In this document: positions 44,332 to 49,909 of the stretch, one piece after another | How positions within the stretch are numbered: the stretch's first letter is position 1 | How the letters are laid out: each line of letters begins with the position of its first letter | DNA from: Acutalibacteraceae bacterium | GTDB taxonomy: Bacteria; Bacillota; Clostridia; Oscillospirales; Acutalibacteraceae | NCBI GenBank assembly: GCA_045533655.1 | Contig: JAZSIE010000002.1 | Span: 35,069 to 99,068, forward strand | DNA: 64,000 nt | Direction: 5' to 3' | Made by a program: the position numbers and the translations under genes | The notes under the pieces: model-generated | Databases searched by the model: none | What the model was told of the DNA's origin: nothing | Seen by the model: only the letters and a program-made list of their open reading frames with translations

Positions 44332-45318
44332 ATGGATTTAAAAGGAAGAGATTTTTTAAAGCTTCTTGATTATAAAAGTGAAGAAATTGAATATCTTATA
44401 GACCTTGCGGCAGAACTTAAAGAAAAGAAGAAAAAGGGCATTCCTCACGAAGAATTAAAAGGTAAAAATATTGCTCTTATATTTGAAAAAACAAGCACAA
44501 GAACACGTTGTAGTTTTGAAGTTGCGGCAAGAGATTTAGGAATGGGCGTTACTTACCTTGACCCATCTGCTTCACAAATAGGCAGAAAAGAGAGTATTGC
44601 CGACACAGCAAGAGTTCTTTCTTCAATTTATGACGGTATAGAATATCGTGGTTATGGGCAAGAAGTAGTTGAAGAATTAGCAAGATTTTCAAGAGTTCCG
44701 GTCTGGAATGGTCTTACTAACGAATTTCACCCAACACAGATTTTAGCTGATTTTCTTACAATTAAAGAAAAATTTGGTAAGTTAAAGGGTATAAACTTCG
44801 TTTATTTAGGCGATGCAAGATACAATATGGGCAACTCTTTAATGGTAGGTTGTGCAAAAATGGGTATGAACTTCGTTGCTTGTGCACCTAAAAAATATTT
44901 CCCTGACACAGACCTTGTAGGCGAATGTAAAAAAATTGCAAAGCAGACTGGTGCTACTCTTACTTTCTCAGAAGACCCTGTTTCTGCAGTTAAAAATGCC
45001 GACGTTGTTTACACGGACGTGTGGGTTTCAATGGGTGAGCCAGAACTTGTGTGGGCAGAAAGAATTAACGATTTGTCAGATTATCAGGTGAATAAAGAGT
45101 TGATGTCACACACAGGTAAAGATACAATTTTTATGCATTGTCTCCCATCTTACCACGATAAAAAGACAGAAATTGGTAAAAAAATCTGCGACAAATTCAA
45201 CAGAACTGCAGTTGAAGTTACCGACGACGTTTTTGAAAGCGAACAGTCAGTTGTTTTTGAAGAAGCAGAAAACAGAATGCACACAATTAAGGCGGTTATG
45301 CTTGCGACGCTTAAATAG
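44332..45318 (+). CDS. argF: ornithine carbamoyltransferase
   Basis: 328 aa. [13 protein letters not shown] and HCLP motifs. Confidence 0.95.
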
Positions 45319-45373
45319 TGTGGCTAGTATGGCTAGTTGGCTAGTTGATAGTATAATTAGTGATTAGTAAGTC
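45318..45373. repeat. Left array: six approximately 8-bp-periodic (C/A/T)TAGT units (GGCTAGT core)
   Basis: gtgtGGCTAGTatGGCTAGTtGGCTAGTtGATAGTataatTAGTgatTAGTaagtc. TAG at 45325, 45334, 45342, 45349, 45358 and 45365. Begins within the argF stop codon. Confidence 0.85.
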
Positions 45374-45468
45374 CGTTGTAGTGGAACTTTGTTCTCTCAC
45401 AAATGAATTCCGAATTCAAAATTCAGAATTACGGCTAAATTATAATTATTTATCAATAAAACAACAAA

Positions 45469-45517
45469 ATTCTATCATTTTTAGTTTGTGATAACTTTAA
45501 ATGATAGAATTTTTTTA
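45469..45517 (+). terminator. Rho-independent terminator (hairpin family copy 3) between the two CTAGT arrays
   Basis: attctatcatttttagtt / aactttaaatgatagaat stem followed by TTTTTTT. Confidence 0.8.
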
Positions 45518-45525
45518 TTGTTATA

Positions 45526-45590
45526 ACACTAGCCAACTAGCCAACTATCCAACTAGCCACACTAGCCATACTGACTTACTGATTCACTAA
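45526..45590. repeat. Right array: eight approximately 8-bp-periodic ACT(A/G) units (ACTAGCC core), the complement of the left array
   Basis: acACTAGCCaACTAGCCaACTATCCaACTAGCCacACTAGCCatACTGacttACTGattcACTAa. Confidence 0.85.
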
Positions 45591-45620
45591 AAATTCACAA
45601 ATTATATTTCTGTAAAAACA

Positions 45621-45649
45621 TTGACTTTGCACACAAAAATTAGTACAAT
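45621..45649 (+). promoter_or_regulatory. Candidate sigma-A promoter of the giant surface-protein gene
   Basis: TTGACT (45621-45626), 17-nt spacer, TACAAT (45644-45649). Confidence 0.5.
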
Positions 45650-45730
45650 TATAATGTATGAAAATTTGCATTTTTAAGGCGAATTTATGAATATAAAATA
45701 TAATTGAAATTTTAAAAAGGAAGTGTTTTG

Positions 45731-48700
45731 ATGAAAAGAGTTTTAAGTTTATTTTTATCATGCATATTTGTTTTAGGTGTGTGTTTCTCAACACCTGTTA
45801 TTGCGAGCGCAGAAGAGCCCGCAACGTTCGTAGTTGACGATAACGTATTTCAATACGTTGAAGGTAGTCAGGAGTGCTCTGTTAAAAAGTGGAATGGTTC
45901 TGACGTTGCTCTTACATTAACTACTGTGCAGGATGAAAATGAGATAACTTATACAATAACAGGTATATTATCAGGTGCATTTAGTGGATGTACAGATCTC
46001 GAAACTTTAACAATAAAATCAAATATTGAGACAATTGAGGCAGGAGCTTTCGCAGGTTGTACAGCTCTTACAGAGTTTATAGAGGATGCAAATTCACTTA
46101 ATAGCGATTTTGAAGTTGATGCGGGTGTTTTGTTTAATGAGAACCAAACCACTCTGATAGCATACCCAGCGGCTAAAGAGGGTACAGAATATACTATTCC
46201 TTTAGGTGTAACAGAAATTGCCAAGGGTGCTTTTGCGGGTTGTGCAAATTTAAAATATATATTTACAGAAAAAACATCTTTTGAAGAAAACGAAAAAATA
46301 ACTATTGGTGAAAATAATGATATTTTTTCACAACCTGGTGTGTATCACGAAGGTTTGGCAGCACATAATTTTTCTGGTGAAGTGGGTCCTAAAAAATGCA
46401 CAGCATGTTGTTTGCTTGAAAATGAAACCGATAAACAACAACACACATGGGAAAACGGTGTATGCACAGAATGTGGATTAGTTTGTGAACATGCATGGGA
46501 AAATGGTGAATGTACAAAATGTGGATTAGTTTGTGAACATGCATGGGAAAACGGTGAATGTACAAAATGTGAATTAGTTTGTGAACATGCATGGGAAAAC
46601 GGAACATGCACAACTTGTAATACAGTATGTGAACATGCGTGGGAAAATGGAACATGTACAAAGTGTGAATTAGTTTGTGAACATACATGGGAAAACGGAA
46701 CATGCACAACTTGTAATACAGTATGTGAACATGCGTGGGAAAATGGAACATGTACAAAGTGTGAATTAGTTTGTGAACATATATGGGAAAACGGAGTATG
46801 TACAACTTGTAATACAGTATGTGAACATGCGTGGGAAAATGGAACATGTACAAAGTGTGAATTAGTTTGTGAACATATATGGGAAAACGGAACATGCACA
46901 ACTTGTAATACAGTATGTGAACATGCGTGGGAAAATGGAACATGTACAAAGTGTGAATTAGTTTGTGAACACACATGGGAAAACGGAACATGCACAACTT
47001 GTAATACAGTATGTGAACATGCGTGGGAAAATGGAACATGTACAAAGTGTGAATTAGTTTGTGAACATATATGGGAAAACGGAACATGTACAAAGTGTGA
47101 ATTAGTTTGTGAACATGCGTGGGAAAATGGAACATGTACAAAGTGTGAATTAGTTTGTGAACATATATGGGAAAACGGAACATGCACAACTTGTAATACA
47201 GTATGTGAACATGCGTGGGAAAATGGTGAGTGCACTGTTTGTTATACAACGTGTGCTCATAACGACAAATCAAATAAAATAGAAAAATTACCAACTTGTG
47301 TAGATACTGGTGTATTACTTACAAAATGTAATGAATGTGATTTTGAAGAAAGAAGCACTATTGATATAGATTCTGATGCTCACAAAATGTCAGATTGGAC
47401 TGAGACTGTAAAAGCAACTTGTTCTTCAACGGGTGTAGAAGAAAGAACTTGTGAAAACGGAGATTGTAAACATACAGAAACACGAGAAACAGGAAAAAAT
47501 CCTAATAACCACACTTATGGTGACTGGGTTGTAACTGCTGCTACTTGTGTTGCAGATGGCGAAAAAGTAAAAACTTGTACAAATACAGAATGTAAGCACG
47601 AGTTAAAAGAAACAATAGCTAAAGACCCAACGGCTCACAAAATGGCTACTGAGTGGGAAGTAACAAAAGCGCCAACTTGTGTAGAAACCGGTTTGCAAGT
47701 AAAAACCTGTTTAAATGTTGGTTGTGACCACGAAATAAAAGAAGTTATTGCTATTAAAGCAGATGCCCATAACTTAGGTGGTTGGGTAGTTACAAAAGCT
47801 GCAAAATGTACTGTTGCTGGTGAAATAACAAGATTCTGTAAAAACGGAAATTGTGAATATAAGGTAACAGATTCGCTTGACCCGGATGGCAAAACTCACG
47901 ATTTCGCAAAAGATTTCACAGTAATTGAAGCAACTTGTATTTCGACTGGTTCGAAATTTAGAGCTTGCGAAAACGAAGGTTGTAAAGAAGTTACAGAGAA
48001 AACAGAAATCGCAATCGACCCTGATGCTCACAAAAACGTTGAGACTATAAATGTAAAACAACCTACTTGTGAAGAAAAAGGTTACACTGGCGACGAATTC
48101 TGTAATGACTGTAAAAAGACGTTCGACCCTGGTATTGAAGTTGATGCATTAGGTCATACTGAAAGTGACTGGATTGTAGATAAAGAAGCTACATTTACAG
48201 AAGAAGGTGCAAGACACATTTCTTGTACTGTTTGTAAAAAAGAACTTAAAAAAGAAGTAATTGAAAAACTTACACTCGCAACACCTTCTCCAAAAGCATA
48301 CAACAAAACAAGCAGTATCAAAGTTAAGTGGACAGACGTAGATAACGCTTTGACTTATAACGTTTATCGTTCAGATTTTGTGAATAACGATTGGACTAAG
48401 TGGAAAAAAATTGGTTCTGTAAAAAAAGGTGTCGGCGAATTTACAGATAAAAATGTTGTAGCTGGTAAACAATATAAATATACAGTGAAGGCTTATAACG
48501 GTGAATTTGTAAGCGGCAAAAAGACTTCTAACAAAATCATATTTATTAAACCGGTAAAACCAGCACTTACAATTACTACAACAGGTCTAATTCTTAAGTG
48601 GGATACTGTATTAGGTGCAGATAAATACGTTGTTTACCGTTCACAACTTGTTGATGAAAAATGGTCTGACTGGAAGAAAGTTTCGACAGTTAAAGACGGT

Positions 48701-49909
48701 AAAACTTCTGCTGTTGATACCTCTGTGGAAAGTGGTGCAACTTATAAATACTCGGTACGTGCATATATTGGCAGTTCTTACACAGAGCGAAAAGCATCAG
48801 GTACTATTATATATCTTGCTCAACCAACTATAAAACTTTCTAATACTGCAACAGGTATTAAAGGTAGCTGGGAAACAGTGAATGGTGCAACTGGTTACGT
48901 AATTACACGTGCTGAATACAACGAGAATACCAAGAAATTTGGCACTGCTATAAAATTAGGTACAGCGGGCGCAACAGCAAAGTCATTTACAGATAAAACT
49001 GCAAAAGAGGGCGTTAAATATAAATATACTTTAACTGCTATAAATGGTACGTATTCAAGCGTTGTTTCATCTGGCAAGGTTATAAGACGACTTGGAGAGC
49101 CAGTTGTAACAATTGAAAATGCAAATGGTTCAATCAAGGGTAAATGGACTCAAGTAAAAGGTGCTACTAATTATACAGTTTATCGTTCTGAGTTAGTTGA
49201 TGGTAAGTGGACTTCTTGGAAGAATCTTGGTACAACTGGTGCAACAGCAAAATCTTTTACAGATAAAACTGTTAAATCGGGTGTTAACTATAAATACACG
49301 GTTAAAGCAATAAACGGTGGCTCAAAGAGTAGCGTTGGCGCTTCAAATAAAGTCGTTTACCTTTCTCGCCCAGAACCAACGGCTGTTAACTCAATTTATG
49401 GTGTAAAGGTTACCTGGGGTGCTATAACCGGTGCTGAAAGTTATATTGTTTATCGTAAGGCTTACGTTAATAAACAATGGACTGAATGGCAACAAATCGG
49501 AACATCAGAGAGCAATTCTTACATTGACTCAACAGCAGTAAGTGGTGTTAAATATAAATACACAATTCACGCTGTAAATGGTGGCAGTTTAAGTGCCCGT
49601 AAAGCAACGTCAACTTTACTTCACGTTGCAACACCAACCGCAACTGTAAAAGCAACCGAAAAAGCAATTAACGTAAGTTGGGGTCAGGTTGGCGGAGCTA
49701 CAAAATACGTAGTTTATCGTCAGGTGCTTGGCGCTGATGGTAAATGGTCAGCATCAACTAAAATAGCATCATTAAAAGGTGTGCTTGAGTTCACTGATAC
49801 CACAGCAGAAGCTGGTAACACTTACAGATATAAGGTTGTAGCTTATAATGGTAAGGTGAAAAGTTCATCTAATGCAACAGATGGCATTTTACTTCCAACC
49901 GCTCAATAA
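45731..49909 (+). CDS. giant secreted protein: signal peptide, BspA-type LRRs, 17 x 16-aa Cys/His mini-repeats, 8 Cys/His modules, 6 FN3-like repeats
   Basis: ATG at 45731 after a GGAAGTG RBS. Signal peptide ...VIASAEE. LRR_5-like GAFSGCTDLETLTI / GAFAGCTALTEFI / GAFAGCANLKYI. For the repeats see separate entries. No LPXTG, TM or dockerin at the C-terminus. Confidence 0.9.
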   Translation: MKRVLSLFLSCIFVLGVCFSTPVIASAEEPATFVVDDNVFQYVEGSQECSVKKWNGSDVALTLTTVQDENEITYTITGILSGAFSGCTDLETLTIKSNIETIEAGAFAGCTALTEFIEDANSLNSDFEVDAGVLFNENQTTLIAYPAAKEGTEYTIPLGVTEIAKGAFAGCANLKYIFTEKTSFEENEKITIGENNDIFSQPGVYHEGLAAHNFSGEVGPKKCTACCLLENETDKQQHTWENGVCTECGLVCEHAWENGECTKCGLVCEHAWENGECTKCELVCEHAWENGTCTTCNTVCEHAWENGTCTKCELVCEHTWENGTCTTCNTVCEHAWENGTCTKCELVCEHIWENGVCTTCNTVCEHAWENGTCTKCELVCEHIWENGTCTTCNTVCEHAWENGTCTKCELVCEHTWENGTCTTCNTVCEHAWENGTCTKCELVCEHIWENGTCTKCELVCEHAWENGTCTKCELVCEHIWENGTCTTCNTVCEHAWENGECTVCYTTCAHNDKSNKIEKLPTCVDTGVLLTKCNECDFEERSTIDIDSDAHKMSDWTETVKATCSSTGVEERTCENGDCKHTETRETGKNPNNHTYGDWVVTAATCVADGEKVKTCTNTECKHELKETIAKDPTAHKMATEWEVTKAPTCVETGLQVKTCLNVGCDHEIKEVIAIKADAHNLGGWVVTKAAKCTVAGEITRFCKNGNCEYKVTDSLDPDGKTHDFAKDFTVIEATCISTGSKFRACENEGCKEVTEKTEIAIDPDAHKNVETINVKQPTCEEKGYTGDEFCNDCKKTFDPGIEVDALGHTESDWIVDKEATFTEEGARHISCTVCKKELKKEVIEKLTLATPSPKAYNKTSSIKVKWTDVDNALTYNVYRSDFVNNDWTKWKKIGSVKKGVGEFTDKNVVAGKQYKYTVKAYNGEFVSGKKTSNKIIFIKPVKPALTITTTGLILKWDTVLGADKYVVYRSQLVDEKWSDWKKVSTVKDGKTSAVDTSVESGATYKYSVRAYIGSSYTERKASGTIIYLAQPTIKLSNTATGIKGSWETVNGATGYVITRAEYNENTKKFGTAIKLGTAGATAKSFTDKTAKEGVKYKYTLTAINGTYSSVVSSGKVIRRLGEPVVTIENANGSIKGKWTQVKGATNYTVYRSELVDGKWTSWKNLGTTGATAKSFTDKTVKSGVNYKYTVKAINGGSKSSVGASNKVVYLSRPEPTAVNSIYGVKVTWGAITGAESYIVYRKAYVNKQWTEWQQIGTSESNSYIDSTAVSGVKYKYTIHAVNGGSLSARKATSTLLHVATPTATVKATEKAINVSWGQVGGATKYVVYRQVLGADGKWSASTKIASLKGVLEFTDTTAEAGNTYRYKVVAYNGKVKSSSNATDGILLPTAQ
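46433..47248 (+). repeat. In-frame tandem array of 17 x 48 bp (96-bp higher-order period)
   Basis: Units VCEH[A/T/I]WENG[T/E/V]CT[K/T/V]C[E/N/G/Y][L/T], with near-identical DNA between units. Confidence 0.95.
47249..48270 (+). repeat. Eight divergent modules of about 40-47 aa: H-x4-5-W-x-V-x3-x-T-C-x3-G-x5-C-x2-4-C
   Basis: For example AHKMSDWTETVKATCSSTGVEERTCENGDCKH, NHTYGDWVVTAATCVADGEKVKTCTNTECKH and GHTESDWIVDKEATFTEEGARHISCTVCKK. Confidence 0.8.
48271..49906 (+). repeat. Six FN3-like repeats of about 85-90 aa
   Basis: Recurrent W..V.GA..Y.VYRS....W..W...G.....FTD..V..G..YKYTVKA.NG pattern. Confidence 0.8.

Follow-up and report, generated by a model that had tools for sequence, protein, structure and literature searches.

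CCHC zinc knuckles follow the pattern C-x2-C-x4-H-x4-C, zinc ribbons carry two CxxC knuckles, and DnaJ contains CxxCxGxG repeats. Periscope proteins and the stalks of fibrillar adhesins include G5-E of SasG, Rib and SHIRT of Sgo_0707 (Whelan et al. 2021, PMC8201768). Giardia's variant-specific surface proteins (VSPs) are rich in CXXC and, in PMC2996952, are described as having been reported to bind zinc (Nash & Mowatt 1993, cited therein). Here we describe a locus comparable to these systems, located in a 64,000-nucleotide stretch of DNA (the window) from an Acutalibacteraceae bacterium (assembly GCA_045533655.1, contig JAZSIE010000002.1, positions 35,069 to 99,068 of the forward strand). One gene of the window (45731-49909, +, stop codon included) encodes a secreted protein of 1392 amino acids (aa), with the domain order LRR_5 leucine-rich repeat (LRR) head, an array of 17 units of 16 residues, eight Cys/His modules of ~43 aa and six FN3-like modules. 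Within a widespread, uncatalogued class of 16-residue Cys3His modules, the array stands out as an extreme case of recent expansion.

Architecture of the array

An initial annotation, made from the DNA alone, had proposed 17 units of 48 bp at 46433-47248, two alternating unit types giving a 96-bp period, variation at about five codons and a first unit without Cys2; all of this was borne out. When the coding sequence (CDS) is cut in 48-bp steps from 46433 (+), exactly 17 in-frame units of 16 aa are obtained up to 47248, with the pattern x-C-x-H-x-W-E-N-G-x-C-x-x-C-x-x. Tandem Repeats Finder likewise reports a 48-bp period (16.2 copies, 46446-47223) and, at a higher order, one of 96 bp (7.9 copies at 93% match with a score of 1254, 46472-47226). 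Unit 1 (KQQHTWENGVCTECGL) lacks Cys2; units 2-17 read VCEH[A/T/I]WENG[T/E/V]CT[K/T/V]C[G/E/N/Y][L/T], with amino-acid variation only at positions 5, 10, 13, 15 and 16, and the pattern C.H.{6}C..C is matched in register by 16 of the 17 units.

Comparison of the units at the DNA level showed that B-type units 5, 7, 9, 11 and 13 are identical, as are units 10 and 16, and that the A-type units lie 1-5 nucleotides (nt) apart, most often at codon 5 (Ala/Thr/Ile), with further differences at codons 10 and 11 in unit 8 (A type). Five 96-bp A-B dimers (units 4-13, 46577-47056, +), whose B units are 100% identical, form a homogenised core, and divergence is greatest in edge units 1-3 and 17; a near-identical interior between diverged edges is the pattern expected of an interior-homogenised array. 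Between the two types, conserved codons 1, 8 and 11 show synonymous substitutions, and the encoded residue changes only at codons 5, 13, 15 and 16, which indicates that the conserved positions have been under selection since the types split. Alternation is broken by unit 14 (47057-47104, +), in which the first 32 nt equal those of A-type units 10 and 16 and the last 24 nt those of the B-type units, as seen in the unit sequences and their difference matrix. The two parts overlap at positions 25-32, where both types agree, so the crossover lies there, and this A/B chimera is the scar of out-of-register (unequal) recombination. The longest exact repeat inside the array measures 119 bp (46820 vs 47108), and 150-nt reads or large k-mers could therefore resolve it.

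A variant Cys/His module, HNFSGEVGPKKCTACC (H-x9-C-x2-C-C), was read from the sequence just 5' of the array (46364-46411, +). Two antisense open reading frames over the array, 46345-47235 (-, 296 aa) and 46389-47294 (-, 301 aa), are most likely by-products of the stop-free repeat unit and not genes.

A widespread family of 16-residue modules

A first search recovered tandem copies of the 16-aa unit in unrelated secreted proteins, many of which are fused to a PF00756 esterase, with the family consensus x-C-x-H-x-[WYF]-x-[ND]-G-x-C-x-x-C-G-x. Among 1.84 billion representatives, a four-unit profile matched at least 1001 clusters (at 50% identity) with E<=1e-3, 415 with E<=1e-10 and 103 with E<=1e-30. 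The array protein, identical to database protein P0043, is the third-best match (E 2e-104), the first row of the profile being itself a block of array units. The unit is widespread and not private to the array gene, and the initial annotation had missed this family of at least 1001 clusters; what is new is consequently the family and the extreme copy number, rather than the array gene by itself.

P0043 has the longest in-register run without a break (16 units), followed by runs of 13, 13, 11 and 11, and chains of one to three units are commonest in the family. Several other arrays are near-identical internally (e.g. ACKHVWKDGKCETCG[VI] repeated), so that recent unit expansion recurs in different genes. 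Conservation within the family is high: 468 of 475 inner units have Cys2, 91 of 92 units have an aromatic residue (W/Y/F) at position 6, and in 70 of 92 (76%) a Gly follows the knuckle (C-x-x-C-G). The array departs from this last feature, because position 15 of the expanded units (46529-47248) is Glu, Asn or Tyr and only units 1 and 2 have Gly15, which may give a slightly different knuckle conformation in this lineage. The partner domains are extracellular (GH25 with SH3_3, PF00756 esterase, CBM26/X25 and LRR_5), the hosts are mostly gut and rumen-type Clostridia, and the named sources are 'hypothetical protein' entries from Ruminococcus, Clostridia or Firmicutes.

Individual members of the family reach considerable size. 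P0042 (3200 aa) has profile matches in 47 stretches and is mostly built of Cys/His modules; two giant proteins resembling GH25 lysozymes, P0041 and P0049, contain in-register runs of 11 and 13 units, respectively; and P0045, with a run of 13 units, has no Pfam family above threshold.

The unit had not been recognised as a named domain family, and database searches agree. Pfam, NCBIfam and PDB sequence searches gave nothing above threshold for the unit or for the ~43-aa long modules downstream, zinc-finger Pfam models staying far below their cut-offs (zf_CCCH_4 at 19-21 bits vs 29; zn-ribbon_14 at ~11 vs 34.9). Literature searches returned no prior description of the motif, of extracellular zinc fingers or ribbons in Ruminococcus or Clostridia, or of Cys-rich stalk domains. 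A further homologue search with the unit profile, limited by its word index, returned a single match and added nothing.

Predicted fold and the long downstream modules

Structure prediction of three or four units had been suggested as a check of the bead model. AlphaFold2, run on four array units with an 82-row alignment of in-register blocks, gave one confident β-hairpin per unit (mean predicted local distance difference test, pLDDT, 92.3; predicted TM-score, pTM, 0.65), with strands at residues 6-7 and 10-11 around the Asn-Gly turn and a bridge predicted at residue 1 of the next unit. Foldseek searches of the PDB returned no match below E=3 for the four-unit model and nothing below E=1 for the short-unit and long-module models; several of nine weak short-unit matches are chains that we take to contain zinc fingers, none of them significant. 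In the viral structure library BFVD, the best match of the four-unit model was A0A8S5PQU4 ('NOA36 protein', Podoviridae sp. ct8dV2; E 0.054, probability 0.98, TM 0.58 over 87 columns, 25% identity), and this gut-phage protein may, judging from the models, carry the same kind of bead array.

The eight long modules (~43 aa; 47249-48271, +), read from the translation and its motifs, share the pattern H-x4-5-W-x5-[AP]TC-x3-G-x5-C-x2-4-C. Long modules 2-3 were predicted with a pLDDT of 92.6 and a three-stranded sheet per module. Their family comprises 146 matches (P0188-P0307), often with cohesin, dockerin, LRR_5, SLH or Big_2, and is a second large family without a Pfam match or a significant PDB analogue.

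The short unit had been regarded as a collapsed form of these longer modules. Across the family the spacing from the His to CxxC is bimodal, at 6-8 and 20-24 residues (peaks 6 vs 22), and the long-spacing class usually has one internal Cys and no C-x-H. Transitional modules connect the two classes. The first long module (TCAH...PTC...CNEC) starts with C-x-H, like the short unit, and a module of L001, a syntenic orthologue described below, consists of DCEHKYEDGK, a 22-aa insert with ATC, and CKIC, which amounts to a short unit into which a hairpin has been inserted. These intermediates and the bimodal spacing stand on the side of the proposal, but profile-profile comparison (hhalign) of short units and long modules was not significant, aligning only C-x-x-C with a probability of 1.8%. 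A relationship between short unit and long module is plausible at the level of motif and spacing.

Probable metal coordination

Covariation at the junctions between modules provides the main evidence on what holds the units together. The bridging Cys was defined as Cys2 of the downstream unit, and junctions were counted only in representatives at 50% identity or less. Of the 170 junctions without the bridging Cys, 131 (77%) have an additional His in the module upstream, compared with 74 of 1126 (6.6%) where that Cys is present, giving an odds ratio for Cys loss and His gain of 48 (54 in the full set). When His residues in the linker are also counted, 93% of the junctions without the bridging Cys are compensated (46 distinct proteins). 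Four ligands per site, conserved with exchange of Cys and His, point to a tetrahedral metal site and not to disulfides. P0006 and P0025 contain single units set apart by linkers, and with three Cys per autonomous unit, disulfides alone would leave one Cys free. His4 is found in every family unit, partly by construction, as the units were retrieved with a His-containing pattern. Together, these patterns suggest that family units most likely bind metal, most plausibly zinc, rather than forming disulfides. Of the two options offered by the initial annotation, Zn-knuckle-like or disulfide-stapled beads, the Cys/His compensation favours the metal, and the same covariation disfavours the disulfide alternative.

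Chain ends were examined in the same manner. Clean starts of chains of three or more units carry Cys at position 2 in 103 of 148 cases (70%); where Cys2 is missing, His occupies position 2 in 7 of 45, a five-fold enrichment (p = 4e-4). Over all first-of-run units, His-x-His occurs in 25 of 738, which is about background and not enriched. At the other end, His at +4 after the last knuckle is four-fold enriched. Asp was considered as a fourth ligand at the same +4 position (the xDPDW motif of P0004, P0006 and P0025) and rejected, its frequency (33/556) being equal to background.

The fourth Cys ligand could be Cys2 of the same unit or of the next, and the sequence patterns are ambiguous. An intra-unit set, Cys2-His4-Cys11-Cys14, is in keeping with the 70% of clean chain starts that carry Cys2 and with the observation that most chains end without a trailing Cys. 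For the shifted register, C-x-H is found in 25 of 38 long modules that follow a short knuckle versus 97 of 659 otherwise (Fisher p = 1e-11), and the compensating His sits in the upstream module. Only the shifted register balances the array chain exactly, unit 1 being without Cys2 and the first long module (TCAH..PTC..CNEC) having one Cys extra.

Syntenic orthologues and lineage-specific expansion

Two syntenic orthologues were identified in metagenome-assembled genomes, L001 (Oscillospiraceae) and L002 (Acutalibacteraceae). In blastn comparisons their flanks are 87-90% identical to the window and the signal-peptide region 93-95%. The head and array (45811-47291, +) form a variable cassette without DNA homology to either orthologue, homology resuming at 47292 (vs L001) and 47902 (vs L002). 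The segments that replace it, 6081-8980 in L001 and 365-2935 in L002, encode other combinations of domains: LRR_5 with CBM_X2, YDG and MBG_2 stalk domains followed by a single short unit (ACTEHEWKNSKCEICKI) in L001, and LRR_5 with YDG and MBG_2 and zero short units in L002. The signal peptide and the C-terminal stalk are common to all three, and known stalk domains in the array's place indicate that the array occupies a stalk position. These comparisons suggest a conserved locus that undergoes recombinational head and stalk swapping.

The number of short units is accordingly 17 in the array gene, 1 in L001 and 0 in L002, a comparison between related species and within a replaced cassette. Orthologues with one or no short unit mark the 17-unit array as a lineage-specific expansion, and with the chimeric unit 14 they bear out the earlier claim that the expansion is recent. 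When metagenomes were scanned for CEHxWENGxCTxC with a degenerate DNA pattern, 48 contigs gave a single match each, and none of them is homologous to the array gene.

Proposed function and alternative explanations

On balance, and with moderate confidence, we favour the explanation that the array is a chain of 17 Zn-stapled hairpin beads that serves as a recently expanded, length-adjustable stalk under the LRR head. Each autonomous 16-residue mini-domain would be a two-stranded β-hairpin, laid out as a His-x-Trp strand, an Asn-Gly turn and Cys-x-x-Cys. Its staple would be a single tetrahedral metal ion (Zn2+ most likely), with His4, Cys11, Cys14 and Cys2 of the same or next unit as ligands. 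Linkerless and head to tail, the beads would form a compact, probably stiff spacer that holds the BspA-type LRR head away from the eight larger Cys3His and six FN3-like modules. Unequal recombination of a 96-bp block of two units would have produced the 17 copies recently, within this lineage, and stalk length would change in steps of 16 or 32 residues, as in a periscope protein. The anatomy, the membership of the family, the confidently predicted hairpin, the covariation of ligand counts, the expansion in this lineage and the trace of recombination are results of the analysis; from them we infer the identity of the metal, the rigidity, the spacer role and ongoing length variation.

Placement within the family is consistent with this proposal. 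Of 184 full-length family proteins, 164 have an N-terminal hydrophobic segment, and 93 have their first module no more than 70 aa from the N-terminus, where it directly follows a signal peptide, lipobox or membrane anchor and precedes the domain responsible for catalysis or binding. Such placement, with positional equivalence to MBG, YDG and X2 domains, suggests a spacer or stalk role, and the near-identical DNA repeats, the chimeric unit and the 17/1/0 difference fit the periscope concept of length-variable stalks.

Several observations weigh against the zinc-stapled stalk. The sequences used for covariation are related, which makes the p-values optimistic, and in ~41% of terminal modules no more than three ligands are obvious. 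Counting ligands cannot separate the two registers, as the models are symmetric, with one deficit per chain each. Most array units carry Glu or Asn at the family's conserved Gly15, and Foldseek gave no significant structural analogue, so no precedent supports a rod shape. Finally, the head-out, tail-anchored geometry is assumed, since no C-terminal wall or membrane anchor was found.

Other explanations concern the chemistry of the beads. Disulfides without metal, as in eukaryotic LNR, EGF and TSP1 modules, with His as a non-ligand, would suit extracellular, Cys-rich units, and sub-threshold Notch LNR matches do occur in 27 of 82 four-unit family blocks (best E 1e-5), with a TSP1 domain among the weak Foldseek matches of the long modules. 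We nevertheless judge this quite unlikely: an autonomous unit, which also exists singly, would keep one of its three Cys unpaired, the His is found in every unit and replaces lost Cys (odds ratio 48), and the array units reach 9.2 bits vs the LNR cut-off of 21.2 with a different Cys spacing. The hosts, Oscillospiraceae and Acutalibacteraceae, are moreover strict anaerobes, and structural disulfides are unusual in such a setting. An extracellular electron conduit, in which the Cys/His units bind Fe-S clusters or heme, is extremely improbable. Family blocks do show weak matches to Fer4, magnetochrome and paired-CXXCH, and CxxCH appears in some members where position 15 is His (P0041), but these Pfam matches fall far below threshold, the array units contain no CxxCH, their C-x-H-x6-C-x2-C-x3-C spacing is unlike ferredoxin motifs, and no cytochrome-maturation or Fe-S export genes lie nearby.

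The role and the length of the array also admit other readings. It could be a ligand-binding solenoid for a glycan or cell-wall polymer, comparable to choline-binding hairpins and possibly the missing anchor, with the aromatic residue contacting the ligand. The near-invariant W/Y/F at position 6, one hairpin per unit, carbohydrate-active partners (GH25, esterase, CBM26/X25) and the failure to find another anchor in the array protein speak for this. We hold it unlikely, because in half of the family the array comes right after a membrane anchor or lipobox, where anchoring would be redundant, chains of one to three units are commonest, stalk domains fill the array position in the orthologues, and the Trp may do no more than pack against the metal site. 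An assembly artefact, in which a short true array was inflated or mis-joined to give the copy number or even the array as such, is improbable. The units are near-identical, the P0043 cluster is a singleton known from a single assembly and one NCBI contig (123,654 bp), a look-up of the exact product gave no match, and the metagenome scan found no second copy. The 119-bp limit on exact repeats, the unique unit order given by codon-5 and other substitutions, the intact reading frame, the increasing divergence toward both edges and the runs of 11-13 units in other family members all argue for a genuine array.

A bolder version of the zinc-stapled stalk is put forward tentatively, as possible and not as probable. 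The unit would be an extracellular zinc domain that is widespread yet undescribed, and no smaller tandem metal-stapled module would be known; adjacent beads would share C-x-H, the Cys on one metal and the His on the next, so as to form a metal-zippered rod tuned by recombination in Gram-positive anaerobes. Such a rod would be a metal-dependent counterpart of the Ig-like periscope stalks and would make surface architecture dependent on the zinc supply of the gut.

Host protein and genomic locus

The array had been placed between an LRR head and an FN3 tail of a signal-peptide protein, and Pfam and sequence reading confirm this arrangement. The CDS starts with ATG at 45731, with an in-frame TTG just before it at 45728. 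A promoter-like site, TTGACT-17-TACAAT (45621-45649, +; consensus match only), lies within 45587-45810, the stretch that is 93-95% identical to the orthologous loci. The signal peptide MKRVLSLFLSCIFVLGVCFSTPVIASA (45731-45811, +), read from the sequence, has n-, h- and c-regions and an AxA cleavage motif (MKR-hydrophobic-VIASA) and is conserved in L001 and L002. The BspA-type head follows (45812-46336, +), with an LRR_5 (PF13306) match of 41.9 bits vs a cut-off of 27.7 (E 1.1e-10, best stretch aa 72-116). At the other end, six FN3-like modules of ~90 aa each, without Cys (48272-49906, +), were recognised from repeats seen by eye and an fn3 (PF00041) match of 28.4 bits vs a cut-off of 25 (E 2e-6, two stretches). 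Neither Pfam nor sequence reading revealed a C-terminal LPXTG, membrane segment, dockerin, SLH domain or any other anchor in the protein, which ends ...DGILLPTAQ.

Upstream lie argH-C-J-B-D-F and downstream a DUF1846 gene; no sortase, maturase or cofactor genes are adjacent to the array gene. With the arg operon and housekeeping genes as neighbours, a reading as a ribosomally synthesised and post-translationally modified peptide (RiPP) or cofactor-maturation locus was rejected.

Between argF and the array gene lies a ~255-bp element (45317-45572), bounded by 31-nt inverted repeats (90% complementary) of TGGCTAGT/ACTAGCCA 8-mers and containing an internal 27-nt hairpin (45460-45519) followed by a T-run. 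L001 has no DNA corresponding to it, its intergenic region spanning ~128 bp vs 267 bp here, and a 16-mer of the element occurs nowhere else in the window. The element could be an insertion resembling a miniature inverted-repeat transposable element (MITE) or a regulatory structure.

Significance and comparison with known systems

If the beads bind zinc, they represent a large, unrecognised structural module of the Gram-positive anaerobe cell surface, with at least 1000 clusters at 50% identity, present in lysozymes, esterases, starch-binding proteins and LRR adhesins. The family, structurally unprecedented in the PDB, would then be a new building block beside the known fibrillar-adhesin stalk domains, would tie the integrity of surface proteins to metal availability and would offer protein engineering a rigid spacer whose length is genetically tunable in 16-residue units. 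For annotation, it accounts for an unmatched region in thousands of 'hypothetical proteins', and for the source genome it points to a gene in which head and stalk are exchanged between related species and recombination can probably alter the length.

The long, uncurated modules of Clostridia surface, cohesin and dockerin proteins stand directly downstream in the same protein, co-occur with the short units in many others and share the His-x-aromatic start, the C-x2-C end and the 3 Cys + 1 His content; they differ in an inserted hairpin of ~16-22 residues with its own Cys, a three-stranded sheet and linkers of ~10 aa. Notch LNR (PF00066) and DUF5650 (PF18888), the best matches obtained, show sub-threshold similarity around [FWY]-x-[ND]-G-x-C-x-x-C. 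LNR, however, has six Cys in three disulfides, Ca2+ and other spacing, and the full array protein gave no match to it; for DUF5650, array units scored 13.7 bits (cut-off 25) and the best family member 20.3 bits.

Mini zinc modules resemble the array unit in their size (~13-16 residues), three Cys and one His, and a C-x-x-C(-G) knuckle on a hairpin, and the DnaJ Cys-rich domain resembles it in that consecutive motifs yield an elongated metal-stapled structure. The array unit differs in its order, C-x-H-x6-C-x2-C with a single CxxC knuckle, and in being extracellular, repeated head to tail up to 17 times and free of any nucleic-acid context. Giardia VSPs (PMC2996952) are likewise Cys-rich, CXXC-containing variable surface proteins of an anaerobic gut organism, some with tandem repeats, but they are eukaryotic, have CxxCHxxCxxC motifs, carry a conserved membrane anchor at the C-terminus and show no 16-aa period. 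They have no sequence relationship to the array unit.

Periscope proteins and fibrillar-adhesin stalks provide a close parallel. As in these, a secreted surface protein has a putative binding domain (LRR) as its N-terminal head and, behind it, folded repeats of near-identical DNA sequence (93% match over the 96-bp period, five identical units, pLDDT 92.3), with the array in stalk position and a copy number that ranges over 17, 1 and 0 across related genomes. The array repeat, however, measures 16 aa vs ~70-130 aa and is probably metal-stapled, whereas periscope repeats are Ig-like or all-β globular domains. As regards surface attachment, the signal peptide and LRR_5 head are present, whereas no LPXTG, membrane or S-layer anchor was found. 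The locus most likely encodes a tandem-repeat adhesin stalk built from mini zinc modules, and not a categorically new system.

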